Shown here: positions 16,868 to 63,361 of the stretch, in pieces
How the letters are laid out: every line of letters starts with the position of its first letter
How positions within the stretch are numbered: position 1 is the first letter of the stretch
From: Bacteroidales bacterium
GTDB taxonomy: Bacteria > Bacteroidota > Bacteroidia > Bacteroidales > UBA1556
DNA: 64,000 bases
Direction of reading: 5' to 3'
Assembly (NCBI GenBank): GCA_027064095.1
Contig: JAMOQI010000032.1
Location: 25,316 to 89,315, forward strand
Program-made: the position numbers and the translations under genes
The notes under the pieces: model-generated
The model's input: only the letters and a program-made list of their open reading frames with translations
The model's database searches: none
Told to the model about the DNA's origin: nothing

Positions 16868-19800
16868 ATGAGTAAGAAATATGAACAATTAATCCATAAA
16901 ATTGAAATTTTTATACGTAAGTACTATAAAAATCAACTAATTAAGGGTATTATTATCAGTCTATCTTTATGGATTTCATTTTTCTTAATAATAAATTTTC
17001 TGGAATATTTCTTTCATTTAGGAAAAACATTCCGTAAAATTTTCTTTTATTTATACTTAGGAGGAGCATTTACAATCTTTATTTTATATATAGCAAAGCC
17101 TATAGCTAGTCTAATTAGAATTGGTAATAGACTTTCTTATATTCAAGCAGCTAAAATAATAGGTGAACATTTTTCGGATGTAAGTGATAAATTACTAAAT
17201 ACATTAGAGTTACAACAATTACTTAAAAATACTTCTTCTGATAATATTTTTCTTTTAGAGGCAGCCGTTGAACAAAAATCAGAGAAACTCTCTCCTATTC
17301 CATTCCAGTCAGCCATTAAATTTTCGATAAATAAAAAATATCTTAAATTTTTAATTCCACCTTTATTAATAATTGTATTTATAAGCTTTTTTGCACCAAA
17401 ATACATTACTGAATCTTCAACTAGACTAATAAATTATGATAAAGAATTTATAGAAAAACCTCCTTTTAAATTTGAAATAATAAACAACAAATTAGAGTGC
17501 CTACAAGGAGAAAATTTTGAACTAAAAGTAAATATTAAAGGCGATATTATTCCGGATGATATTTTTATTATTATTGATAACTATCCTTTTAAAATTAAAA
17601 AAGAAAATAAAATTTCGTTTAAATATTTGTTCAATAACGTTATTGCTAACAAAAGATTTTATTTTAAATCTGGCAAATATAAATCTCAAATTTACGAACT
17701 AATTATCGTTCCCAAGCCAAAAATTTTATCATTTAGTATAGAAGCAAAATATCCATCATATATTAACAAAAAAACTAAAACTTTTAAAAATATCGGGGAC
17801 CTGAGTATTCCGGAAGGTACAAAGTTGAAATGGTATTTCAACACAAAAGACATAACTAATTTGAAAATACTCTTTGCAAAAGATACCATAAATTTATCGG
17901 ATAAAAATAAAGTAAAAACCCAATACATTTATTTTACTAAAAGCGAAAATTATAATATTATACCACAAAATATATATATAACCAGACCTGATACAATTAA
18001 TTATCATATAGAAGTTATAAAAGATCAATATCCGCGTATAAAAGTGGATAATTTTAAAGATAGTTTAAATGATAAGATTATTTATTTTCAAGGAATTATA
18101 AAAGATGATTATGGTTTTTATAACCTCATCTTTAAATGGAAAAAACAACAAGAAGCCAATTATAACAGTATAGATATTCCAATTCACAAAGGTATAAATC
18201 AACAGCGTTTTTATTTTATCTTAGATATAGATAGTATGCCAATAGCACAAGGAGAAAATATTTCATATTTCTTTGAAGTATTTGATAATGATGCTATTAA
18301 TGGTTATAAATCAAGTAAAACACTTCTTCAGTCTGCAAGAAAAGCTAGTATTATGCAGCTTGATAGTGCAAGAAAAAAAATCGATAATGAATTGAAAGAA
18401 TCGATGAAAAAAACAATTGAAAAAACAAAAAAAATTACCAAAGAAGTAGAAAAGCTTCAGAAAAAATTCGTGGATAAAAAACAATTGAATTGGCAAGATA
18501 AACAACAATTAAAAGATTTACTTAATAAATTAAAACAAATTCAAAATAACATTGAAAAAATTAAAAAAACACATGCTAAATCTCAACAAAAAAACAAAGA
18601 ATTAAGCAAAGAAGATAAGCGTTTATTAGAAAAACAAAGACAGCTGGAAGAACTTTTTAATAAACTTATGACCCCCGAAATGCAAAAAATGATGATGGAA
18701 ATGCAAAAAATGATGAATGAAGAATTAAAAAAAGAAGATGCTCAGAAAATGCTTAATCAAATACAAATGGATAATAAAGATTTAGAAAAACAACTAGATA
18801 GAGATTTAGAAATGTTTAAGCAAATGGAGTTTGATCAAAAACTACAAGAAGCTATATCACAATTAGATAGTATCAAAACCAAGCAAGATAAAATAAAAGA
18901 GGAATTAGGAAAAAATAATAAATCAACAAAAGAAATTACCAAAAAACAAGAAGAATTAAATAAAGAATTTAAACAATTTAAAAATAAATTAGACGAAGCT
19001 AAAAAAGCTAATGAAAATCTTGAAAAACCTAACAAAATGGATAATTTTGATAGTGAGAAGCAAGAAATAGAAAATAAAATGGAACAAAGTAAGCAAAGTC
19101 TTGAAAAAGGAAAGAAAAAATCTGCTTCCAAAATGCAAAAAAGCGCATCAGAAGCCATGCAAAAATTATCAGATAAATTAAAACAAATGCAATCTGAGAT
19201 AGAGATGGAATCTAATGCAGAAAACATAGAAGATTTGAAAAATATACTTAATAATCTAATTGAAACTTCGTTCAACCAGGAAAACTTAATGAAAAAAGTT
19301 AAATCAACAAATCACACAGACCCTAATTATCCAAGTCTTATAAGATCTCAAAAAAATATTAAGATGGACCTCCTAATGATAGAAGATAGCTTATTAGCAT
19401 TAAGCAAAAGACAAGCATCTATTTCACCTATGGTAAATAAAGAAATAGGAAATATTAACCTTAATATGGAAAAAACACTTGAATCATTACTCGCCATAAA
19501 TACTATAGGTCCAACTTCAAAACGACAAAAAGATTATGCTGTTTCTAACCAACAACAAATAATGACTTCTGTAAACAACTTAGCTTTAATGTTATCGGAA
19601 GCTTTAGAACAAATGCAAAAACAACAAATGCAATCTAAGAATGGAAAAGGTAACTGTAAAAAACCTAAACCTGGTCAAAGTGGAAATAGTATGAAAAGTA
19701 TTAGACAAATGCAGGAAGCTCTTAATAAACAGATGAAAAAAATGCAAGAGCAAATGAAAAATGGTAAAGGAAAACAAAAAGGTCCCCAAAAAGGTAATGG

Positions 19801-20257
19801 TAAACAGGGAAATGGTGGCGAAAAAATGAATGAAGAGTTAGCCAAAATGGCTGCTCAACAAGAAATGATACGACAAAAACTACAATCATATCAGGAATCA
19901 CTAAAAAAATCTGGCGGTGGTAAACAAGCTCGTGACTTGAATAAAACAATTAAGGATATGGAGCAAAATGAAACTGAATTAGTAAATAGCATTATTCTTA
20001 AAGAGAGCTTAATGCGTCAGCAAGAGATACTTACACGTCTATTGGAAGCTGAAGAAGCAGAGAGAGAACAGAAGCAAGAAGATAGGAGAGAAGCAAAAGA
20101 AGGCCATGATATTAAAAGAAAATACCCACCAAGTATTGAAAAATATTTAAAGCAACAAAATTCGGAAGTGGAATTATTAAAAACTATTCCCCCAGAAATG
20201 AAACCTTTTTACAAAAATAAAGTAAACAAATACTTAGAACAAATAAAGGTTCACTAA
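16868..20257 (+). CDS. Large membrane-anchored coiled-coil protein (DUF4175-like)
   Basis: 1129 aa. N-terminal TM helices, a beta-rich middle region, then ~500 aa of K/E/Q/M-rich coiled coil (MQKMMMEMQKMMNEELKKE...). Confidence 0.55.
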   Translation: MSKKYEQLIHKIEIFIRKYYKNQLIKGIIISLSLWISFFLIINFLEYFFHLGKTFRKIFFYLYLGGAFTIFILYIAKPIASLIRIGNRLSYIQAAKIIGEHFSDVSDKLLNTLELQQLLKNTSSDNIFLLEAAVEQKSEKLSPIPFQSAIKFSINKKYLKFLIPPLLIIVFISFFAPKYITESSTRLINYDKEFIEKPPFKFEIINNKLECLQGENFELKVNIKGDIIPDDIFIIIDNYPFKIKKENKISFKYLFNNVIANKRFYFKSGKYKSQIYELIIVPKPKILSFSIEAKYPSYINKKTKTFKNIGDLSIPEGTKLKWYFNTKDITNLKILFAKDTINLSDKNKVKTQYIYFTKSENYNIIPQNIYITRPDTINYHIEVIKDQYPRIKVDNFKDSLNDKIIYFQGIIKDDYGFYNLIFKWKKQQEANYNSIDIPIHKGINQQRFYFILDIDSMPIAQGENISYFFEVFDNDAINGYKSSKTLLQSARKASIMQLDSARKKIDNELKESMKKTIEKTKKITKEVEKLQKKFVDKKQLNWQDKQQLKDLLNKLKQIQNNIEKIKKTHAKSQQKNKELSKEDKRLLEKQRQLEELFNKLMTPEMQKMMMEMQKMMNEELKKEDAQKMLNQIQMDNKDLEKQLDRDLEMFKQMEFDQKLQEAISQLDSIKTKQDKIKEELGKNNKSTKEITKKQEELNKEFKQFKNKLDEAKKANENLEKPNKMDNFDSEKQEIENKMEQSKQSLEKGKKKSASKMQKSASEAMQKLSDKLKQMQSEIEMESNAENIEDLKNILNNLIETSFNQENLMKKVKSTNHTDPNYPSLIRSQKNIKMDLLMIEDSLLALSKRQASISPMVNKEIGNINLNMEKTLESLLAINTIGPTSKRQKDYAVSNQQQIMTSVNNLALMLSEALEQMQKQQMQSKNGKGNCKKPKPGQSGNSMKSIRQMQEALNKQMKKMQEQMKNGKGKQKGPQKGNGKQGNGGEKMNEELAKMAAQQEMIRQKLQSYQESLKKSGGGKQARDLNKTIKDMEQNETELVNSIILKESLMRQQEILTRLLEAEEAEREQKQEDRREAKEGHDIKRKYPPSIEKYLKQQNSEVELLKTIPPEMKPFYKNKVNKYLEQIKVH

Positions 20258-41590: not shown

Positions 41591-42553
41591 TTATTTAATT
41601 ATTAACTTTTTACAAATCCTGTTTTTATTAAAAATTAAATTTACGACATATACACCTTTGGGTAAACTGGAGGTGTTTATTTTGTTTAAGCCTCCTTTTA
41701 TATCTATATTAACATATAATTGAGAAAGCATATTGAAAATCTGTATTTTAGTGTTAGTATTTGTTTTTATGTAAACAAAGTCTTTACAAGGATTAGGAAA
41801 GATAGAAACATCGGATTTTGTATTTAATTTAGAGAAGCCAACATTTTGGTTTATTACTCCTATAGCATCAAGGTCGAAACCTGACGAAGGAAAAGGAGTA
41901 GGAAATGGGTCATTAATAATATTTCCATTGCTATCATAAGATGCAATAGTGCTATCAATACTTCCGACTACATCTATAATTCTAATAAAATTTATATTCT
42001 GTAAATCCAAATTAGCATTTCCTTGTAATTCACTTAGGTCAAAAGGAGTACCGTAACCACCTTTATATTTTCCTGCTAAGTTATTTATTTTTGTTGCTTC
42101 TAAAGTGCCAAAAGTAGTTATTTGCGAATCTATTTGGGTAAGAGAATGAGAAGGAAATCTAACAAAATATTGTCCATCAGAGCTTACTTCTACAAAAGCA
42201 AGTTCTAGAAAGAAATCGTCGAAAGAGTTTTCAAAAACAGCAAAATCCCAGGATGGTCCATCTACAATTGTATTTGCAAAAGATATTATGGCCAAACCAC
42301 CATCACCGAGACTTACAGTTGAATTGTCTGCAATTCCAACAGCATTATTATCTACTCCATAGGTTGCAATTCCTAATGAAGTATCCTGTGCATTAACCCA
42401 GCCTCTGGTGATGCTCGCATTGCTTGCCCAACTTACAAACACATTACTATCACGATAGATAGCAGTGCTCCCGCTTTGACCTGCTGCAGGTGCATATTGT
42501 GCTATGCTAATGGTGGAGATAAATAATAATATTATTAGAATTACTTTATTCAT
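41591..42553 (-). CDS. T9SS-secreted protein of unknown function (second gene of the B12-riboswitch operon)
   Basis: 320 aa. Signal peptide MNKVILIILLFISTISIAQ and a C-terminal Por_Secre_tail-like CTD (IFPNPCKDFVYI...LPKGVYVVNLIF...KKLIIK). The central block is SLGDGGLAIISF...DGPSWDFAVFENSFDDFFLELAFVEVSSDG. Confidence 0.7.
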   Translation of the reverse strand: MNKVILIILLFISTISIAQYAPAAGQSGSTAIYRDSNVFVSWASNASITRGWVNAQDTSLGIATYGVDNNAVGIADNSTVSLGDGGLAIISFANTIVDGPSWDFAVFENSFDDFFLELAFVEVSSDGQYFVRFPSHSLTQIDSQITTFGTLEATKINNLAGKYKGGYGTPFDLSELQGNANLDLQNINFIRIIDVVGSIDSTIASYDSNGNIINDPFPTPFPSSGFDLDAIGVINQNVGFSKLNTKSDVSIFPNPCKDFVYIKTNTNTKIQIFNMLSQLYVNIDIKGGLNKINTSSLPKGVYVVNLIFNKNRICKKLIIK

Positions 42554-42559
42554 TGGCTT

Positions 42560-43540
42560 TTACTGTTTTATAAATCTTATTTGTTGCAAATTGTTATTGC
42601 TAATAATTTGTATAAAATATAAACCATTTGTGTAATTACTGATATCTAATTTCAATTTAGTTAAATTAGATTCAATATTTTCTGAATAAACCAAACTTCC
42701 TTTAGTATCAAAGATTCTTATAGATTCTACATCTTCAATACCACTGATTGTGATATTATTAGTGCTAGGATTTGGATAAACATTAATATTATTTTGGTTT
42801 TTAAATGTAGGCTCTACATTCACACCATCAAGGCATTGTAGGTCGTCCATACAAAAGTATGAAGGAGTATTCATTCCATAAGCACCATTATCGCTACTAC
42901 TTAATACAAAGGCTAGACTGTCCACATTTCCCAATTTCATAAGGTTAACCATTGTCCAGTCTTTAATAATATAGTCCTTGCTATTATCGGCAAAACGATA
43001 ATCTGCTAAAAAGAAATTTACAGTATCAGTCAAACTACCATTTAAATATCCTTGAACAGTAAGCATAAACCAATCAGAATCGTTACCGGAAGTACCACCG
43101 AATTTTTTAGCATAAGTATCGCCATTTTTCATGCTATAATAAGCATAAGTGTTATTATTGATGTAAAATCCAGATACAAGCTTACCACTAGAACTATTTG
43201 TCAGTTTTATACTTGTAGCTCCGGTATATGCACTAACATAAGCAACAGCATATGTTGCAGATATATTTCCGCTACCTGAAATTGACGAATACATATTTGA
43301 CCAACCGGTAGTAATGGTATCGGTTTTTGAAGAGTATGCAAAACCACCCCAAGTGTAATAGTTGGTATCATATTGATTACTAAAAACAGCATTACCACTT
43401 ATGAAATTACCACTAAGGTCCGAGCCGTTCCAAAAAGTATCAGCCGGCAAGTTTAAGTCCTCGAAATTACTTGTTGTTTGTGCTTGTAATGTAACAAAGC
43501 TGGCTACAACTAAAGCCATTGATAGTAAAAAATTTCTCAT
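42560..43540 (-). CDS. T9SS-secreted protein, DUF4465-like (first gene of the B12-riboswitch operon)
   Basis: The ORF track start 43567 is a TTG; trimmed to ATG 43540 (MRNFLLSMALVVASFVTLQAQ signal peptide). WNGSDLSGNFISGNAVFSN...WGGFAYSSKTD resembles DUF4465 from memory. The C-terminal T9SS CTD is VYPNPSTNNITI...TNGLYFIQIIS...IRFIKQ. Confidence 0.65.
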   Translation of the reverse strand: MRNFLLSMALVVASFVTLQAQTTSNFEDLNLPADTFWNGSDLSGNFISGNAVFSNQYDTNYYTWGGFAYSSKTDTITTGWSNMYSSISGSGNISATYAVAYVSAYTGATSIKLTNSSSGKLVSGFYINNNTYAYYSMKNGDTYAKKFGGTSGNDSDWFMLTVQGYLNGSLTDTVNFFLADYRFADNSKDYIIKDWTMVNLMKLGNVDSLAFVLSSSDNGAYGMNTPSYFCMDDLQCLDGVNVEPTFKNQNNINVYPNPSTNNITISGIEDVESIRIFDTKGSLVYSENIESNLTKLKLDISNYTNGLYFIQIISNNNLQQIRFIKQ

Positions 43541-43654
43541 AAAATTGTAAATTTTAAGGTCGGACAAAATCGTCCATTAATAATTAATAAATCCTCAAAA
43601 CTTACGGGAAACAGAAAGTGTAAAAAATACAAATTCAAGCTTTTAGTCCCGAAA

Positions 43655-43835
43655 GCATTTGTAATATGAAAGTGGCAGGTCTTCTGACTTACTCCTTGTC
43701 TTTTGTCGTCTTCCCTTTTGTGGTTTGGAAACAAAAAGTGACATTTGACAAAAGCATTTAGAGTTTACAGCAGCGGGTACTGTTCAGGATTTTCACCTGA
43801 TTCCCTCTTGGCCTAAATAATTTAGGAACCCCTTT
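43655..43835 (-). promoter_or_regulatory. Cobalamin (B12) riboswitch aptamer
   Basis: The - strand reads GGTTCC..AGGCCAAGAGGGAATCAGGTGAAAATCCTGAACAGTACCCGCTGCTGTAAAC....AAAGGGAAGACGAC....GTAAGTCAGAAGACCTGCCACTTTC. The conserved core and the B12 box (AGTCAGAAGACCTGCC) are both present. Confidence 0.88.
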
Positions 43836-43841
43836 ACGGGG

Positions 43842-43849
43842 CAAAGATA
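43842..43849 (-). promoter_or_regulatory. -7 promoter box (TATCTTTG on - strand) driving the riboswitch leader
   Basis: TAnnTTTG match immediately upstream of the aptamer 5' end. Confidence 0.5.
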
Positions 43850-43885
43850 GTTTTATTTTTATTAAAAGACAGGTATTTGTGAAAT

Positions 43886-50051: not shown

Positions 50052-51587
50052 CTATAAAGGAATATTTCCATGCTTTTTAGCTGGATTTTGTTCACTTTTG
50101 TTTTTAGTCATATCCAAAGCCTGAATAAGTTTTTTACGGGTATCGCGTGGAAGAATTATTTCATCGATATATCCCATTTCAGCAGCTTTGTATGGATTAG
50201 CAAAAGTGTCTTTATATTGTTCAACAGTATTTGTAAGGTCGTCACCTTCAAGGTTTCTGTAAAGAATATTTACAGCTCCGTCAGCACCCATAACTGCAAT
50301 TTCAGCAGAAGGATAAGCAAAGTTTACATCAGCACCGATATGTTTTGAGTTCATCACATCATAAGCTCCACCATAAGCTTTACGGGTAATTAGAGTAATT
50401 TTGGGTACTGTAGCTTCAGAGAATGCATATAAAAGCTTAGCGCCATGTTTTATAATTCCACCATATTCTTGTACTGTACCTGGTAAGAAACCAGGAACAT
50501 CTACTAGCGTAATTAATGGAATATTAAAAGCATCACAGAATCTGACGAAACGTGCAGCTTTAATACTTGAATCAATATCTAAAACACCTGCAAAGAAAGC
50601 TGGTTGATTGGCAACAAAACCTACAGTTCTTCCATCCATACGACCATAGCCAATAACGATATTTTGAGCATAATGCTCTTGTACTTCATAGAAATAATTA
50701 TTATCAACAACAGATTCAATAATTTCTTTTATATCATAAGGTTTGTTAGGGTCTGCAGGAACTAAATCATCTAATTTATTATCAACACGGTCTACAGGGT
50801 CGTTATTTTTAACAATAGGTGCAGAGTCTAAATTATTAGATGGTAAGAATGATAATAATTCTCTGATAGCCATTATGCTAGATTCATCATCTTCAGACAT
50901 AAAATGAGCCACACCACTCTTTGTATTATGTGTAACCGCACCACCTAATTCTTTTTTAGTTACTTCTTCATTGGTAACTGATTTTACTACATCTGGACCG
51001 GTAACAAACATATAGCTACTATCTTTCACCATAAAGATAAAATCTGTAAGGGCAGGAGAATAAACAGCACCACCGGCACAAGGACCTAAGATAGCAGAAA
51101 TCTGAGGGATAACACCGGAAGCCTTTGTATTTAACCAAAAGATATCTGCATAACCGGCAAGACTTTGGACTCCCTCTTGAATCCTGGCTCCACCAGAATC
51201 GTTTAATCCAATGATAGGAGCACCATTTTTCATTGCTAATTTGGTTACCTTTATAATTTTATCAGCATTGGTACGACTCAAAGAACCACCAAAAACAGTA
51301 AAATCTTGTGCATATAAATATATTAATCTGCCGCCAACTTTACCATAACCCGATACTACACCATCACCAAGAAATTTGTTTTTATCCATATCAAAATCAG
51401 TTGTTCTATGAACAACAAATTTGTCAAATTCTACAAACGTTCCGGGATCAACGAGTACATCTATTCTTTCTCTTGCAGTAAGTCTTCCTGCTTTATGTTG
51501 TTTCTCAATACGGGCAGCACCACCACCCAATTCAGCTTGCTTGTTTTTTTCTTCAAATAATTTATATTTATCTTGATTTGTCATCAT
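50052..51587 (-). CDS. Acyl-CoA carboxylase carboxyltransferase subunit (propionyl-CoA carboxylase beta / methylmalonyl-CoA carboxyltransferase family)
   Basis: 511 aa with full-length similarity to the PccB/MmdA family. Confidence 0.9.
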
Positions 51588-52135: not shown

Positions 52136-53647
52136 TTAAAAACGCATTAAACTTTTACGTTTACCGAATGATTTCCATTCACTTGTATTACACTCTTCAG
52201 TATCTTCGTCTTTCTTAGCAACAGCATTATTATTCAAATAATGTATAAAAGAAGCCATTACGGCTAATTTGTCATGCTCTTCAGAATGAGATTCTTTTTG
52301 AATAAGATAATCGATATTTTTATCGATAAAAGCAGTACTATATTTACCCGAAGCAAAATCTTCAGATTCCATAATTCTATTTAAAAAACGAATATTGGTA
52401 CGTACACCACTAATTTTATAGCTATATAAAGCTCTCTTCATTCTTTCAATTGCTTGTTTTCTGTTTTTAGCAGTAACAATTAGTTTAGAAATCATTGGGT
52501 CATAATGAATAGGAATTTCATAATTGCTATATACATAACCATCTATTCTAATACCGGGGCCTTGAGGTGCTTGATGATTTTTAACTAATCCTGGACTAGG
52601 CATAAAGTTAGAACATGGATCTTCAGCATAAACTCTGGCTTCTATTGAATGTCCTTGTTGAAACAAGTCTTCCTGTTTATATTCAATTTCCATTCCTGCT
52701 GCAACCTGAATTTGTTGTCTAACTAAATCAACTCTAGTAACTTGTTCTGTAATTGGATGTTCAACTTGCAAACGAGTATTCATTTCTAAGAAGTAATAAT
52801 TTAAATCATCATCAACAAGAAATTCAACCGTACCAGCCCCAACATAATTAACAGCTTTTGCTGCCATTACTGCTTGCTTGCCCATAATAGCTCTAAGTTC
52901 AGGTGTCATTAGTGGTGAAGGAGTTTCTTCAATTACCTTTTGATGACGACGTTGCACGGAGCATTCTCTTTCAAAAAGATGAATTACATTACCATGAGAA
53001 TCTCCTAGTACTTGAAATTCGATATGGTGAGGATTTTCCACAAATTTTTCTACATAAACAGTGTCGTCACCAAAGCCTGCAAGAGCTTCACTTTTAGCTG
53101 CTCTAACACCGGATATGATATCTTTCTCTTCTCTAACGAGTCTCATTCCTTTACCTCCACCACCGGCAGATGCTTTTATCATAACAGGAAGACCAACTTC
53201 TTTTACAATACGGATTGCGTCTTCGTCATTTTCAATATTTTCTTTTGTGCCGGGAACAACTTGTACTCCTGCTGCAATCATTTTCTTACGAGCAGAAATT
53301 TTATCTCCCATTACTGAAATAACATCGGAAGTAGGACCTATAAAAATAATTCCTTCTTCTCTACATCTATCAGAAAAGGTTGCGTTCTCGCTTAAAAAAC
53401 CATATCCCGGATGAATTGCATCAGCACCGGATTTTTTGGCGACATCAATAATAGTATCAATTACTAAGTAACTTTCTGCTGATGCAGCAGGGCCGATAAA
53501 GTAAGCTTCATCAGCTAATCGTACGTGTTGTGAATTGCGGTCTGCTTCCGAAAATACGGCAACGCTTTTAATTCCCATTTCTCGACAAGTGTGCATTACT
53601 CGTATTGCTATTTCACCACGATTTGCAATTAGAATCTTTTTAATCAT
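52136..53647 (-). CDS. accC: Biotin carboxylase subunit (AccC-like)
   Basis: 503 aa. ATP-grasp fold, GGGGKGMR, EMNTRLQVEH. Confidence 0.93.
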   Translation of the reverse strand: MIKKILIANRGEIAIRVMHTCREMGIKSVAVFSEADRNSQHVRLADEAYFIGPAASAESYLVIDTIIDVAKKSGADAIHPGYGFLSENATFSDRCREEGIIFIGPTSDVISVMGDKISARKKMIAAGVQVVPGTKENIENDEDAIRIVKEVGLPVMIKASAGGGGKGMRLVREEKDIISGVRAAKSEALAGFGDDTVYVEKFVENPHHIEFQVLGDSHGNVIHLFERECSVQRRHQKVIEETPSPLMTPELRAIMGKQAVMAAKAVNYVGAGTVEFLVDDDLNYYFLEMNTRLQVEHPITEQVTRVDLVRQQIQVAAGMEIEYKQEDLFQQGHSIEARVYAEDPCSNFMPSPGLVKNHQAPQGPGIRIDGYVYSNYEIPIHYDPMISKLIVTAKNRKQAIERMKRALYSYKISGVRTNIRFLNRIMESEDFASGKYSTAFIDKNIDYLIQKESHSEEHDKLAVMASFIHYLNNNAVAKKDEDTEECNTSEWKSFGKRKSLMRF

Positions 53648-59018: not shown

Positions 59019-60560
59019 TTGAAACATATATTTTTAAGCATAGTTTATCTTTTATTATCATCAAGTATTATTGCCCAGAAGCTTTCTCATGAGCTTTCAC
59101 AATCTGATGATTATTATTTAAATTTCTGGAAGACTAATTTGGATTCTCTTAGTGAATGTACTCAAAATACACTGCATTATGAGATATTAAGCCTTAAGCG
59201 TAATATTCCCGGTTACACTGAAAAAAATTATAAGGACCTAATAACTCAGCTTAATAGTGAAATTCAATTAAAATATGATTATCGTGTTGGTGATATTTTG
59301 TCTTTTTATATTCAAAATGGAGAAAAAACCTCTTTTGCTATTGCTTATTCTAATTTTTTAAGTAAGAAATTTAGCAAAGAATTGGAGTTAGCTTCATTAC
59401 CTAAAACCTTGAAATATCTTCCATTGGCGCTTTCTGCTATGAACAAAAAGGCTATGAATAAGGCTGGGGCTTCGGGGCTATGGCAACTTAGGTATTCGGC
59501 AGCAAAGAAAGAGGGATTGGTGATAAACTCTTTTGTGGATGAAAGAAGAAATATTGATAAATCAACATTAGCTGCTTTGGTAGAATTAAAACAATTGTAT
59601 ATTTTGTATCAAAATTGGGATTTAGCACTAGGTGCCTTTGCTTGTGGTCCTAGTAATATCAATAAAAGCATTAGAAGAGTAGATAATAAAGTGGATTATT
59701 ATGTTATTTACCCATTGCTGCCCGATTTTGGACGGGATATTGTTCCTGCACTTACCGCAGCGGCTATGATAAGCCAGTTTCCACAGGAGTTTGGTTTGAA
59801 AATACCGGAGATTGATTTCAATATTGATGTTGACACTTTAGAAGTATCTCAAAGATTGCATTTTGTTCAGCTAAATAAGGTTTTGGGAATAGCGATTGAT
59901 ACTTTGCGCTTCCTTAATCCAAAATACAAAAATGATATTGTTCCCGCAATTGATAAAGTGTATCAGATATTGATACCTAAAGGTTTTTTGACTGCTTTTA
60001 ATGAGTTGGAAGATTCAATATATCATTATCAAGATTCTTTGCTTTTTAATATAAAAAGACCTGTTATTCTTCCTCCACCATCAAAAGAACGACGCTTTGC
60101 TAAATATGAGCCGGAACGTATACCTGATGGTTCGGCATTGGTATATTATCATATTAAAAGTGGTGATAATCTTGGTTATGTGGCTTCATGGTATGGAGTT
60201 AAAACAAGTCAGATTGAAGATTGGAATAATGTTTACGATCCAAGAAGATTGCAAATAGGTAAGAGATTAAAAATATATATTCCGGAAGAAAAGGAGGATT
60301 ACTATAGAACTTTCGATGATTTGAGTTTTCAAGAAAAACAAAAACGTATTGGGAAGGCAGCAAAGTCGTCTATAAAACCAAAGAAAGAAGAACCACTGGG
60401 TAAGAATTGGTTTTATCATACTGTAAAGTCCGGAGAATCGCCATATATTATAGCAAAAAAATATAAAGGTGTGAGTGCTGATGATATTCTTCGTTGGAAT
60501 AATATCACAAATCCAAGAAATATTAGACCAGGACAAAAACTAAAAATTAAGAAGCAATGA
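59019..60560 (+). CDS. MltD-like lytic transglycosylase homolog with two C-terminal LysM domains; catalytic Glu apparently replaced by Leu
   Basis: 513 aa. TTG start and signal peptide MKHIFLSIVYLLLSSSIIAQ. The SLT block LPLALSAMNKKAMNKAGASGLWQL aligns without gaps to the MltD pattern (V/I)ESAFxPxAxSxAxAxGxWQ, with L at the E position. The two LysM domains are YYHIKSGDNLGYVASWYGV... and YHTVKSGESPYIIAKKYKGV... Confidence 0.75.
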   Translation: MKHIFLSIVYLLLSSSIIAQKLSHELSQSDDYYLNFWKTNLDSLSECTQNTLHYEILSLKRNIPGYTEKNYKDLITQLNSEIQLKYDYRVGDILSFYIQNGEKTSFAIAYSNFLSKKFSKELELASLPKTLKYLPLALSAMNKKAMNKAGASGLWQLRYSAAKKEGLVINSFVDERRNIDKSTLAALVELKQLYILYQNWDLALGAFACGPSNINKSIRRVDNKVDYYVIYPLLPDFGRDIVPALTAAAMISQFPQEFGLKIPEIDFNIDVDTLEVSQRLHFVQLNKVLGIAIDTLRFLNPKYKNDIVPAIDKVYQILIPKGFLTAFNELEDSIYHYQDSLLFNIKRPVILPPPSKERRFAKYEPERIPDGSALVYYHIKSGDNLGYVASWYGVKTSQIEDWNNVYDPRRLQIGKRLKIYIPEEKEDYYRTFDDLSFQEKQKRIGKAAKSSIKPKKEEPLGKNWFYHTVKSGESPYIIAKKYKGVSADDILRWNNITNPRNIRPGQKLKIKKQ

Positions 60561-62035
60561 TACGCCCTTTGAAAGTCGTTTGGTTTTTTACTTTTGTTGG
60601 AATTATTCTAACACTTAGTTCTCTTACACTTCCTAAGGATGGTGTTGAAATTGCCGGTTTTAAGATTCACTTACCAAGTGTTGAATCGTATTTTACAAAA
60701 GACACCAATAGTTATGCTGATATTTCTCAAATAGTGGAGCAAATATCCGATATCGACTCTTTGCCGGATATAACACAGATTATAGAAGCAGAAAAAGTAA
60801 ATATTGATTCATCGGCAATGATAAATCCAGAGGATACTATTAAAGCAAATGCTGCTAAATTGGCTGCTAGTATTCATAAAATTGAGTTTGGTACAAAAGG
60901 AAAAGAATCTTTATTAAAGTTTTTTGAAAAACTCAATAATAAAAATACTAGTAATATTCGTATAATGCATTATGGTGATTCTCAATTAGAAGGAGATAGG
61001 ATTACGAGTTATATACGCAATAAACTTCAGAAAAAATATGGTGGTAGTGGGCCTGGACTTTTACCTGCACTTCAGCCTTACGAATCATACTTTAGTATAA
61101 ACCAAAGCAATGAGGGAGCGTGGGTTCGTTATCCTGTTTTTGGGAAGGTAAATCCTATTGTTAAGCATAATCGTTATGGCCCTTTGGCTGCATTTTCTCG
61201 TTTTGCTCCGATTGTTCCTGATAGTTTGTTTAAGGACAGCATTGAATATCACGCAAGTATTAGTTTTGAAGAATCGAAATTATCTTATGCCAGTGTTCGT
61301 AAATTTCAAAGAATTCGTCTTCTTTATGGTAATTCGAAGCGTGCTGTAGAAATAAAATTAATGGTAAACGACACTATAATTTATATTGATAGTTTAAAGG
61401 CAAATACCGATTTAACTGTTTTTGAATATAAACTCAAAAAGCCAACAAAGAATCTAAGAATAGAATTTACAGGCTATGATAGTCCGGATATTTATGGCAT
61501 AGCCTTAGATGGTCTTAAAGGTGTGAGTATGGATAATATTGGACTTCGTGGAAGCTCGGGAACTATTTTTCGTAAGATGGATTATGAACATTTGCAAAAA
61601 GCATATAAGGTATTAGGTGTGGACATGATAATACTACAATTTGGAGGTAATGTAATGCCTTATATCAAAGATACAATACAAGTAGTGAATTATGCTAGAT
61701 GGTTTAAGAGTCAAATCTATACTTTGCAAAAAATGAATCCGCAGATAGCTATTATAGTATTAGGACCTTCAGATATGTCATATAAATCCGGAGACAAATA
61801 TATTACTTATCCATTTTTACCATTGGTAAGAGATGAGCTTCGTAAAGCTGCATTTCAGGCAGGATGTGGATATTGGGATATATATGAGGCGATGGGTGGA
61901 CATAATTCAATGCCTTCGTGGGTGCGTTCACAACCACCATTGGCAGGTGCTGATTATACTCACTTCACACCTCGTGGTGCTAAACTTATTGCTAATATGT
62001 TTTATAATGCTCTTATGTATGAATCTATTAAATAA
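60557..62035 (+). CDS. Membrane-anchored SGNH/GDSL-family hydrolase or acyltransferase
   Basis: 492 aa with an N-terminal TM helix. Block I is HYGDSQLEGD, block II GLRGSSG, block III QFGGNVMP, block V DYTHFT. The ATG overlaps the upstream stop (ATGA). Confidence 0.7.
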   Translation: MIRPLKVVWFFTFVGIILTLSSLTLPKDGVEIAGFKIHLPSVESYFTKDTNSYADISQIVEQISDIDSLPDITQIIEAEKVNIDSSAMINPEDTIKANAAKLAASIHKIEFGTKGKESLLKFFEKLNNKNTSNIRIMHYGDSQLEGDRITSYIRNKLQKKYGGSGPGLLPALQPYESYFSINQSNEGAWVRYPVFGKVNPIVKHNRYGPLAAFSRFAPIVPDSLFKDSIEYHASISFEESKLSYASVRKFQRIRLLYGNSKRAVEIKLMVNDTIIYIDSLKANTDLTVFEYKLKKPTKNLRIEFTGYDSPDIYGIALDGLKGVSMDNIGLRGSSGTIFRKMDYEHLQKAYKVLGVDMIILQFGGNVMPYIKDTIQVVNYARWFKSQIYTLQKMNPQIAIIVLGPSDMSYKSGDKYITYPFLPLVRDELRKAAFQAGCGYWDIYEAMGGHNSMPSWVRSQPPLAGADYTHFTPRGAKLIANMFYNALMYESIK

Positions 62036-63361
62036 ATGAGGGATAGAATATTAAATATTATCTTTTTGGTGTTTGTTTTTAGCGTTTATTCAAATATCAT
62101 ATTTGCCCAATATGGACGATATCCTTTTGAAATAAGCCATTACAATATTGTAAAATATGATAGTAATCATTTAAAATTCCCTGAGGGAAGAGCTAATTTT
62201 GAAATTTTTTATAATAAACTGTATCATACAATAAGCATGGGGCAGTCACAAATAAACATTGTGCAATATGGTGGTTCACATATCCAAGCAGATATATTTT
62301 CGGGAGAATGTCGAACTAGATTCCAATCGTTCGATGGTGGAATAAATGCAGGTAGAGGTTTTGTTTTTCCTTATCGTCTTGCACATACCAACACGCCCTA
62401 TGGTTATTATTTTAGATATAGTGGTGATTGGACAACTTGCAGAAATGTTCAGAAAAAAGAATCTTGCAATCTTGGAATGGCAGGTATTAGTGCCAGAACT
62501 GAGGATACTTTAAGCTCATTAACATTGCTAATTGAACCAGATAATGATCTTGACTATTCTTTTAATAGAATTAAGATTTATCACAATATGGATTCTGCTT
62601 CATATAGTATTCGTATTGATACAAATATACTTGATTCACAGAAAGTATTTATTAATGAGGGATATACGGAACTTTATTTAAATGATTTTATTGATAGTTT
62701 ACAAATAGAATTTTATAAATCAGATAGTAATCAGAGTTTTTTCCAGCTTTTTGGAATGAATTTAGAAACAAATAATGCCGGAATTGTATATCATAATCTT
62801 GGAATAAATGGTGCTGCCACTACCTCTTTCCTTAGATGTAATAGAATGGAGCAGGATTTAAAAACTATTAAACCCGATTTAGTAATTTTTGGTATTGGTA
62901 TTAATGATGCTTATGGTAAAAAATTTAGTCAGAGGAAATTCGAAAAAAATTATGATAGTTTAGTTTCGCGAGTAGTTGCAGCAAACCCTGATGTAGCTAT
63001 AATTTTTGTTACTAATAATGATAGTTATATTAGAAAGAGATATTTAAATAGAAATGGAATTAAGGTTCAGGAAAGTATGTATCGTCTGGCAAAAAAACAT
63101 AAAGCTGCAGTGTGGGATATGTTTGAGATAATGGGTGGTTTAAACTCTATTGTTGTTTGGCAGAGAGATTATTTGGCAAAAAGAGATAGAGTGCACTTTA
63201 CTAGAACCGGATATATTTTATTGGGTGATTTGCTTTTTGATGCCGTAATTAAGGATTATGGAGATTTTTTAGAACACAAAACCAATAAATTATCATCTAA
63301 ACACAATTTTTTGGATGAGAGTGCTATAATTGATACAAGAACAGATAACAAGAACAGATAA
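62036..63361 (+). CDS. SGNH/GDSL-family hydrolase or acyltransferase (paralogous architecture)
   Basis: 441 aa with a signal/anchor sequence. Block I is QYGGSHIQAD, block III FGIGINDAYG, block V DRVHFT. It starts directly after the upstream TAA. Confidence 0.7.
   Translation: MRDRILNIIFLVFVFSVYSNIIFAQYGRYPFEISHYNIVKYDSNHLKFPEGRANFEIFYNKLYHTISMGQSQINIVQYGGSHIQADIFSGECRTRFQSFDGGINAGRGFVFPYRLAHTNTPYGYYFRYSGDWTTCRNVQKKESCNLGMAGISARTEDTLSSLTLLIEPDNDLDYSFNRIKIYHNMDSASYSIRIDTNILDSQKVFINEGYTELYLNDFIDSLQIEFYKSDSNQSFFQLFGMNLETNNAGIVYHNLGINGAATTSFLRCNRMEQDLKTIKPDLVIFGIGINDAYGKKFSQRKFEKNYDSLVSRVVAANPDVAIIFVTNNDSYIRKRYLNRNGIKVQESMYRLAKKHKAAVWDMFEIMGGLNSIVVWQRDYLAKRDRVHFTRTGYILLGDLLFDAVIKDYGDFLEHKTNKLSSKHNFLDESAIIDTRTDNKNR

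Follow-up and report, generated by a model that had tools for sequence, protein, structure and literature searches.

Riboswitch and gene pair at the locus

A 64-kb stretch of DNA from a Bacteroidales bacterium (contig JAMOQI010000032.1, positions 25,316 to 89,315; here called the window) carries on its minus strand a riboswitch for cobalamin (vitamin B12) followed by two genes, which we refer to as gene A and gene B. We analyzed this locus along with related loci from other genomes, and the results suggested that the two genes form a B12-repressed operon for the capture of cobamides outside the cell, with both proteins delivered by the type IX secretion system (T9SS). The features of the locus are as follows, in the order of transcription; the GC content of the window is low (30.4%).

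Positions 43842-43849, minus strand: promoter box TAtcTTTG, directly abutting the aptamer, read from the sequence.
Positions 43657-43848, minus strand: cobalamin riboswitch aptamer (RF00174), full length, with the B12 box AGTCAGAAGACCTGCC.
Positions 43541-43656, minus strand: expression platform, consisting of a small hairpin and a 13-bp stem (arms at 43605-43593 and 43559-43547).
Positions 42560-43540, minus strand: gene A, a predicted B12-binding protein of the BtuJ family (DUF4465), 326 aa, assigned from Pfam, NCBIfam and PDB matches; signal peptide, residues 1-20; DUF4465 domain, residues 60-234 (nucleotides [nt] 43363-42839); C-terminal sorting domain (CTD), residues 254-326 (nt 42781-42563).
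Positions 41591-42553, minus strand: gene B, founding member of an unnamed family, 320 aa, with a family match for the CTD only; signal peptide, residues 1-18; jelly-roll domain resembling family 32 carbohydrate-binding modules (CBM32), residues 20-239 (nt 42496-41837); CTD, residues 251-320 (nt 41803-41594).

Scanning of the window with cmscan yielded a strong, full-length match to RF00174 (110.3 bits, E 9.5e-27, model positions 1-189 of 189), far above the gathering score of 31.5 and with the B12 box AGUCAGAAGACCUGCC aligned within it, and this was the sole Rfam match across the entire 64 kb. The same element scored 164.7 bits with a covariance model built from related loci and trained on eight Rfam-confirmed riboswitches. 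These results established the complete minus-strand B12 aptamer that had been reported in a preliminary description of this DNA. The TAnnTTTG box placed upstream of the gene pair in that description was likewise borne out. TAnnTTTG is the -7 promoter consensus of Bacteroidota, and the motif occurred between -40 and +15 of the aptamer start at 57 of 65 related riboswitch loci, and no more than 3 nt from the aptamer start at 53 of the 65, compared with 3.5% of random 56-nt windows taken from the same loci.

The 13-bp stem of the expression platform appeared in the minimum-free-energy fold of this region (z-score, -1.9), and its 3′ arm stops 7 nt upstream of the AUG of gene A. The leader from the aptamer to the AUG was conserved in five genomes, in which both stem arms were invariant and the loop varied in sequence as well as in length. 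Between the aptamer and the AUG, a consensus scan revealed no intrinsic terminator, and no GC-rich stem with a U-tract was present; nor did inspection by eye reveal a convincing complement that could serve as a kissing-loop partner for the first platform hairpin. These data weakly favor ligand-dependent occlusion of the translation start region as the mode of switching.

Genes A and B lie on the same strand, 6 nt apart, downstream of the riboswitch. Both proteins possess a hydrophobic signal peptide that ends in A-Q and is devoid of a lipobox cysteine, as judged by eye from the translations, and both carry, at the extreme C terminus, a T9SS type-A CTD that scored above the curated cut-offs, the makeup of T9SS cargo. 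The CTD of gene A matched Por_Secre_tail (PF18962, E 8e-14) and TIGR04183 and also resembled the PDB CTD chain 8glj_D in a sequence search. The CTD of gene B matched PF18962 (E 4.4e-12) and TIGR04183 and resembled the PDB chain 8glk_D by sequence, and the full-length model of the protein matched 8glk_D and 8qb1 structurally. The two back-to-back genes for proteins with a signal peptide and a T9SS sorting domain, as initially described, were thus borne out, the sorting domains by matches to curated models.

On one side, the pair is flanked by sufE and a FeS_assembly_P gene and, on the other, by a TlpA/ResA-like gene and coaD. No TonB-dependent receptor, ABC importer or salvage gene was found among the annotated open reading frames (ORFs), about 30 of the largest in the window, and the locus itself contains neither the TonB-dependent BtuB nor the DUF5074 protein BtuG of a BtuB/BtuG operon. 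The earlier picture of a gene pair set between the SUF operon and a TlpA-like gene, with no transporter, therefore holds for the annotated ORFs.

Gene A encodes a member of the BtuJ family

Gene A had been called DUF4465-like, and this was confirmed by a match to PF14717 with an E value of 5.5e-52 (177.1 bits versus a cut-off of 25), covering profile positions 2-176 of 176. In PDB, its sequence matched 9fct (BtuJ1, E 1e-23), 9hmu (E 1.7e-23) and 9i2l (BtuJ2, E 2e-9). The signature of the family is an HI-loop motif, (M/N)TP(S/A)Y, which holds a binding tyrosine (PMC13398666; bioRxiv 10.1101/2025.07.31.667871). The stretch GMNTPSYFC is identical in gene A and 9fct_B, such that Y228 of gene A aligns with Y245 of BtuJ1, and Y132 (in NNTYAYY) aligns with Y146 of the BtuJ1 DE-loop. 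From these conserved binding residues, we infer that gene A encodes a BtuJ-type jelly-roll protein that would bind the corrin ring.

DUF4465 is now named BtuJ, and binding of B12 by the family was reported in 2025-26 (PMC13398666; bioRxiv 10.1101/2025.07.01.662609). Two surface lipoproteins of Bacteroides thetaiotaomicron, BtuJ1 and BtuJ2, show tight binding of B12, are loaded onto vesicles and confer a fitness benefit under B12 limitation (bioRxiv 10.1101/2025.07.01.662609; PMC12751083; review PMC13616437), and six further divergent DUF4465 proteins, one of them from the flavobacterium Fluviicola taffensis, bind B12 as well (PMC13398666). Gene A is hence no longer an uncharacterized lead, and half of the novelty claimed for the locus is already published because DUF4465 is BtuJ.

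Compared with the characterized members, gene A shares its domain, the MNTPSY loop and both tyrosines with BtuJ1 and BtuJ2 (PDB 9FCT and 9I2L) and with D5EK51 of Coraliomargarita akajimensis (PDB 9HMU). Its setting is also that of BtuJ in B. thetaiotaomicron, which is encoded under riboswitch control directly upstream of a gene for BtuH, a second B12-binding protein. The difference lies in export: BtuJ1 and BtuJ2 are lipoproteins with a lipoprotein export signal, whereas gene A specifies a plain Sec signal peptide and a T9SS CTD and has no lipobox. The lipoprotein export signal is a trait of the Bacteroides BtuJ members, rather than of the Pfam family, and it is absent from gene A. The DUF4465 papers describe more than 70% of the family as lipoproteins and refer to the remainder as 'periplasmic' (PMC13398666; PMC12751083; bioRxiv 10.1101/2025.07.01.662609).

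Gene B founds a large family and has a predicted jelly-roll fold

The N-terminal domain of gene B had no sequence match in Pfam, NCBIfam or PDB. A search of a 5.8-billion-sequence database retrieved at least 7996 proteins of this family, and an exhaustive search gave 1917 representatives at 50% identity with E ≤ 0.001, 800 of which matched at E ≤ 1e-30. The number of species-level genomes that encode a relative is at least 585. In the best 80 genome loci, the closest homologue was 69% identical to gene B; the domain, 220 aa in length, retains ~60% identity across classes. Thus, the second gene, which could not be placed in any family at the outset, is now the founding member of a very large one, probably with a distant relationship to BtuH (see below).

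Structure prediction with AlphaFold2 (AF2) was confident, with a mean pLDDT of 89.5 when the whole protein was modeled and 81.7 when the N-domain was modeled by itself, and the Foldseek neighbors of the N-domain model were CBM32 and F5/8-type-C folds, including AlyQ. A Foldseek comparison of the full-length model with PDB was uninformative, yielding composites of a jelly roll and an Ig domain (GH2 enzymes) with TM-scores of ~0.2 in addition to the CTD matches. We also considered whether gene B is a divergent DUF4465 paralogue, which was ruled out by an hhalign probability of 1.3%, or a form of BtuK, BtuG or BtuL, which are beta-propellers or, for BtuL, 696 aa in length, in contrast to the jelly roll modeled for gene B; the latter three were set apart by fold and length, and of the proteins of the B. 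thetaiotaomicron locus only BtuH was compared by sequence. No divergent paralogues resembling B or BtuH were found among the neighboring ORFs.

In 36 of 73 gene B homologues (for gene B itself, see window positions 42496-42476, minus strand), signal peptide cleavage is predicted at A|Q, leaving Gln as the first mature residue, and the motif Y-A-P-A-A-G-Q immediately follows this site. Since this motif resembles one of BtuH, the putative ligand-contact motif would lie at the very N terminus of the mature protein. An N-terminal Gln of secreted Bacteroidota proteins is probably cyclized to pyroglutamate.

Gene B is a probable distant relative of the BtuH B12-binding domain

Using hhalign with default settings, we aligned the B profile with the BtuH profile at a probability of 87.2% (P 3.8e-6) over 38 columns; relaxing the alignment threshold gave a match spanning 168 columns at a probability of 88.5%. 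The control alignment with DUF4465 is that given above. The extended alignment pairs YAPAAGQ26 of gene B with YTPAPGQ333 of BtuH2 and FEN109SF with QGN399AF, and it also pairs VSLGD-GG with VSLGSFGG, and FLEL with WYEL after a 21-residue loop specific to BtuH. In BtuH2, Q333 and N399 contact the ribose and the phosphate of the B12 nucleotide loop (PMC8941943). Of the residues aligned with these contacts, N109 does not vary across the B family, and Q26 matches the family consensus. When PDB was searched with hmmsearch, 7BIZ (BtuH2) was weakly matched (E 0.04) by two of three B-family profiles, one of which also matched 8BLW_B, the BtuG1 chain carrying a BtuH domain; phmmer with the gene B sequence itself retrieved no BtuH chain from PDB.

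For the comparison, B. thetaiotaomicron locus 2 (L101; loci are designated by L numbers) was recovered from gut metagenome contigs by a scan with a two-row BtuH2 alignment. A 593-aa ORF of the recovered locus reproduced all six published BtuH2 contact residues, and btuH2 directly follows btuJ2 in B. thetaiotaomicron, matching the A-then-B order of the window. The BtuH B12-binding domain (L101:3818-4699, plus strand) has ~5100 matches of its own, mostly stand-alone proteins of ~318 aa from gut samples, and this domain family has no Pfam model despite a crystal structure available since 2022.

BtuH2 (BT1956; PDB 7BIZ) and the BtuH domain fused to BtuG1 (BT1490; PDB 8BLW) are, like gene B, accessory proteins encoded beside btuJ. 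Both kinds of protein share Y-x-P-A-x-G-Q and VSLG-x-GG...DF-x-V-x-N-x-F, the motifs holding the two nucleotide-loop contacts; both have CBM32 structural neighbors, with AlyQ named for BtuH in the BtuH paper (PMC8941943), and neither has a Pfam model. BtuH domains occur alone or fused to a propeller (PMC8941943), and so do B domains. On the other hand, the domain of gene B is ~220 aa long versus ~290 aa for BtuH, it is without the 21-residue DxNGNG loop and without PKD domains, and a T9SS CTD is found where BtuH has a lipid anchor. Gene B is probably a distant relative of the BtuH B12-binding domain.

Most surveyed gene B homologues are encoded in riboswitch-controlled loci

We surveyed the best 80 of at least 585 species-level genome loci that carry a gene B homologue, calling and clustering their ORFs. 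With the custom covariance model, a cobalamin riboswitch was detected upstream of gene B in 61 of the 80 loci, always on the same strand, and the model also detected the riboswitch in the window and in L001, L003 and L004. For ~11 of the 19 riboswitch-less loci, the upstream sequence was cut off. The association of gene B homologues with B12 riboswitches, which the preliminary description had named as a test of its proposal, was therefore found at most of the surveyed loci.

Several operon orders recurred, namely J-B-TBDT-G, G'-B-TBDT-G, TBDT-J-B-G and TBDT-G-G'-B, where J denotes DUF4465, TBDT a TonB-dependent transporter, G a DUF5074 (BtuG-type) protein of ~350 aa and G' a related propeller of ~425 aa with a sorting domain. 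The last of these orders is that of L052 in Mesonia ostreae, and J-B operons are carried by members of Flavobacteriia and Saprospiria. The TBDTs matched the TonB-B12 models best and over the full length, though below the cut-offs. In L064 and L082 the riboswitch governs B alone, and in L028 and L045 it governs a gene for DUF4430 plus a CTD, which precedes B. Fusions were also observed among 34 long representatives, the partner of the B domain being DUF4465 in 11 of them, DUF4430 in 3 and DUF5074 in 1. Mean pairwise identity was 49% for B, 40% for J, 35-39% for G and 30% for TBDT, making B the most conserved protein of the operon. As far as sequence evidence goes, riboswitch association, gene order, fusions and the remote similarity to BtuH together tie gene B to B12 loci.

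The survey also revealed further components and contexts. A gene for a Diphthami_syn_2 (PF01902) ATP-binding-domain protein of ~235 aa without an export signal (cluster c6) recurs in riboswitch-controlled B12 operons at 8 loci, including L017 (9179-9898, plus strand), L046, L025, L038, L065, L081 and L048; it is located between DUF4465 and B in L017 and L046. An accessory module of ~140 aa, with the motifs 'YWVG.GS...VVDF...AWGY.F.G' and 'NG.WFGC' and a T9SS CTD, was seen at L044:8796-9944, L054:9110-10912, L067:8190-9890 and L028:9177-9938 (all plus strand), in tandem in L044, fused to a B domain in L054 and to a DUF5074-like propeller in L067. The other copies of this module are unannotated because only that of L028 reaches Pfam DUF4430 (E 1.7e-7). 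Finally, the gene B homologues of L055, L073 and L076, one of whose contigs is labeled Chitinophaga pinensis, have neither a riboswitch nor btu neighbors and lie between a conserved group of genes (clusters c12, c23 and c44) and an ORF of ~1185 aa (c45; the homologue is at ~9929-10912 in L076). This subgroup suggests a second, B12-independent context of the B domain.

The capture proteins are predicted T9SS cargo

In the surveyed loci, sorting signals were distributed as follows.

B: T9SS type-A CTD in 68 of 71; lipobox in 1.
Co-located J: T9SS type-A CTD in 28 of 29; lipobox in 1.
Long propeller (G'): T9SS type-A CTD in 22 of 23; lipobox in 0.
Short BtuG-like protein (G): T9SS type-A CTD in 1 of 49; lipobox in 36 of 49.

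By these signals, the lid of the core transporter is predicted to keep its lipid anchor, and the capture layer is predicted to be T9SS cargo. To our knowledge, B. thetaiotaomicron has no T9SS. The literature searched, including the DUF4465 papers, makes no mention of a link between T9SS and Btu proteins or B12 uptake. An analogy can be drawn to haemophores (such as HasA and HmuY) and to vesicle-borne BtuJ 'like siderophores', which follow the same logic of a high-affinity extracellular binder that is expressed on starvation and feeds an outer membrane receptor; in contrast to haemophores, the ligand here would be a cobamide and export, to judge from the domains, would proceed by T9SS.

Among the long B-domain representatives, three end in a PEP-CTERM signal and one in a CHU_C (type-B T9SS) signal, without a type-A CTD. 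These endings indicate re-use of the B domain with other surface-sorting signals, and the domain probably occurs outside Bacteroidota as well.

A capture unit separated from its transporter genes

In most relatives, the genes for the pair, for a BtuB-like TBDT and for a DUF5074 lipoprotein form a single operon, under the same riboswitch and promoter layout, whereas the operon of the window is without both transport genes, uncoupling capture from transport. Because most relatives hold the pair and the BtuB-like and BtuG-like genes together, we regard the window as a split locus, not a transporter-independent pathway. The absence of a transporter gene noted earlier accordingly holds for this locus, as judged from about 30 of the largest ORFs in the window, but does not characterize the system as a whole.

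The stand-alone layout was in the minority, being found in ~6-7 of ~58 informative riboswitch loci and, in addition, in the clade to which the window belongs. These loci are L027, in which xth, surE and lpxB follow the pair, L063 and L083, with tandem DUF4465 gene and B, and L064, L082 and L028; L027, L063, L064, L082 and L083 represent similar stand-alone units in unrelated lineages. In close relatives from that clade (L085, L086 and L087), gene B is 74-77% identical to that of the window, and the riboswitch, the J-B pair and the leader are kept while the flanks differ. Conservation of the unit despite differing flanks points to purifying selection on the two genes together, arguing against a decaying remnant.

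Proposed mechanism and alternative explanations

Taken together, the data are best accommodated by a two-gene, B12-repressed operon for extracellular cobamide capture, in which a BtuJ protein and a BtuH-like protein would be delivered as a pair by T9SS, and we consider this reading reasonably probable. At high intracellular cobamide, the aptamer would bind its ligand and the 13-bp stem would keep the start region of gene A occluded; at low cobamide, both genes would be expressed. Both products would cross the inner membrane via Sec and then the outer membrane via T9SS, directed by their type-A CTDs, to become surface-attached or released. There, the gene A product would hold the corrin ring in the manner of BtuJ, and that of gene B would most likely bind cobamide via the nucleotide-loop side, as the next relay step toward a BtuB-BtuG complex, which in this genome would be encoded outside the window. 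The logic is that of the BtuJ-to-BtuH-to-BtuG/BtuB relay in B. thetaiotaomicron, with T9SS sorting domains replacing the lipoprotein anchors of the capture proteins; for the Bacteroides proteins, passage of B12 from BtuJ1 to BtuH2 and BtuG2 has been followed by stopped-flow. The core of the original proposal, a B12-repressed and T9SS-exported corrinoid-capture pair, is therefore retained, since the family of gene A binds B12 and gene B is supported by context and by its similarity to BtuH, while part of it, the DUF4465 half, is already in print as BtuJ.

Several observations weigh against this reading. The similarity to BtuH was confident over only ~38 columns; the third B profile lost the 7BIZ match, and in the Foldseek comparison 7BIZ fell outside the top 50 and 8BLW_B was listed only with a poor TM-score. 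The residues H476, Y510, W511 and W577 of BtuH2, which contact the corrin ring, fall in a low-confidence region and have no clear counterparts in B. Because these corrin residues are unaligned, the domain is ~70 residues shorter and Foldseek did not single out 7BIZ, we say only that gene B probably works like BtuH and do not assign it to the BtuH family. Furthermore, ~8 loci with enough upstream sequence had no riboswitch (L029, L039, L042, L055, L056, L072, L073 and L076), and genomic association alone is no proof of binding because non-binders such as BtuL and BtuK2 are encoded in B12 loci too (PMC12751083). As for export, no T9SS machinery gene turned up in the annotation of the window, in which no search aimed at such genes was made. 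As for switching, no covariation was seen in the platform stem across the five genomes, and since a GC-rich stem with a U-tract is also lacking, the role assigned to the platform is putative; its mechanism is deduced from conservation, the fold z-score being just -1.9. The doubt that remains concerns mostly the binding of cobamide by gene B, which we infer from the comparisons above.

In an alternative reading, gene A captures B12 and gene B is a non-binding adaptor that tethers a binder (BtuJ, the propeller or DUF4430) to the surface or to BtuB-BtuG, or is another kind of helper, like BtuL. Non-binders of this sort have precedents in the B12 loci of B. thetaiotaomicron, where BtuL promotes vesicle release and BtuK2 does not bind B12 despite its similarity to BtuK1 (PMC12751083; PMC13616437). 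Moreover, B is nearly always found beside a recognized binder and often fused to one, its high conservation fits a conserved protein partner as well as a conserved ligand, and the BtuH corrin-contact residues are not recognizable in it. However, an adaptor would have no co-encoded docking partner in L064 and L082, where the riboswitch controls B alone; conservation of the putative partners TBDT and G falls far short of that of B, and the residues aligned with the two BtuH2 ligand contacts are kept. We therefore judge an adaptor role to be rather unlikely. A different function is suggested by the fold, as the best structural neighbors of gene B bind pectin, alginate or galactose (2jda, 3nng, 5zu6 and 7d29), and the family has many invariant Asp, Glu and Asn residues, as do calcium-dependent CBMs. 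Gene B would then be a CBM32-type module anchoring the capture machinery to a glycan (that of the capsule, of algae or particles, or the surface polysaccharide of the cell itself), and its likeness to BtuH would reflect no more than a shared fold. Yet the TM-scores were modest (0.35-0.41, query-normalized) and no CBM family was matched by sequence, in contrast to a sequence link that points to BtuH in particular and extends to the ligand contacts of BtuH. Glycan-degrading or glycan uptake genes were not recurrent in the operons, and control by a B12 riboswitch is hard to explain for a glycan binder, so that a role in glycan anchoring appears very unlikely.

The minority status of the transporter-less layout could also mean that the pair is the decaying remnant of a former btu operon, separated from btuB and btuG and no longer aiding B12 uptake. 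Against this, both ORFs are intact with complete domains and the riboswitch scores 110 bits; the pair, riboswitch and platform are conserved in the relatives with rearranged flanks (the protein identities of 74-77% cited above), and similar stand-alone units arose in unrelated lineages. We find such decay scarcely probable.

Broader implications

Returning to capture by both proteins, we tentatively extend it to a broader scheme, which seems possible though doubtful at present. Environmental Bacteroidota would use T9SS to release interchangeable modules (BtuJ, the secreted BtuG-like propeller, DUF4430 and B), almost every set of which includes a B domain. As protein 'cobalaminophores', either soluble or attached to the surface, these modules would scavenge B12 at a distance from the cell and return it to BtuB-BtuG. 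The gene B family would represent a new, compact variant of a cobamide-binding fold in at least several hundred species, and the stand-alone units would let the capture proteins be regulated separately from the transporter, and perhaps be shared or exploited separately as well. Three elements appear to be new: delivery of the cobamide-capture layer by T9SS, the large unnamed B family, and the recurrent riboswitch units devoted to capture only.

In oceans, soils and guts alike, B12 serves as a keystone micronutrient, with Bacteroidota among its major consumers. Mechanistic knowledge of extracellular B12 capture in this phylum comes so far from B. thetaiotaomicron and a few recombinant DUF4465 proteins of other bacteria. 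If our reading is correct, most environmental Bacteroidota deliver the capture layer by an export route other than that of gut Bacteroides, and this layer includes an abundant, highly conserved family that has no name, Pfam model or structure. Binders that are secreted, not lipid-anchored, would alter the partitioning of B12 in communities, since they could become public goods or fall prey to theft by neighbors. The B domain should be readily amenable to binding assays and crystallography, and a model of its family would improve B12-regulon annotation in thousands of metagenome-assembled genomes.

Other features of the window and related loci

Elsewhere in the window, a carboxyltransferase gene (50052-51587, minus strand) resembles methylmalonyl-CoA decarboxylase alpha (TIGR01117, E 6e-237, below the cut-off), and a biotin carboxylase gene lies nearby (52136-53647, minus strand), the two being jointly propionyl-CoA carboxylase-like. 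The methylmalonyl-CoA pathway usually requires a B12-dependent mutase. The carboxylase genes hint at this pathway, which would fit a B12-requiring organism. Two plus-strand ORFs of the window, at 16868-20257 (1129 aa) and 60557-62035 (492 aa), had no Pfam match at E ≤ 1e-5, and a third, at 62036-63361 (441 aa), had no NCBIfam match at the same threshold.

Among the related loci, a group II intron domain match (RF00029, 42 bits) was located upstream of the L027 locus (L027:3850-3933, minus strand), and the B12 locus of Mesonia ostreae was flanked by two Flavo-1 small RNAs (RF01705; L052:517-608 and L052:19090-19171, both on the minus strand).

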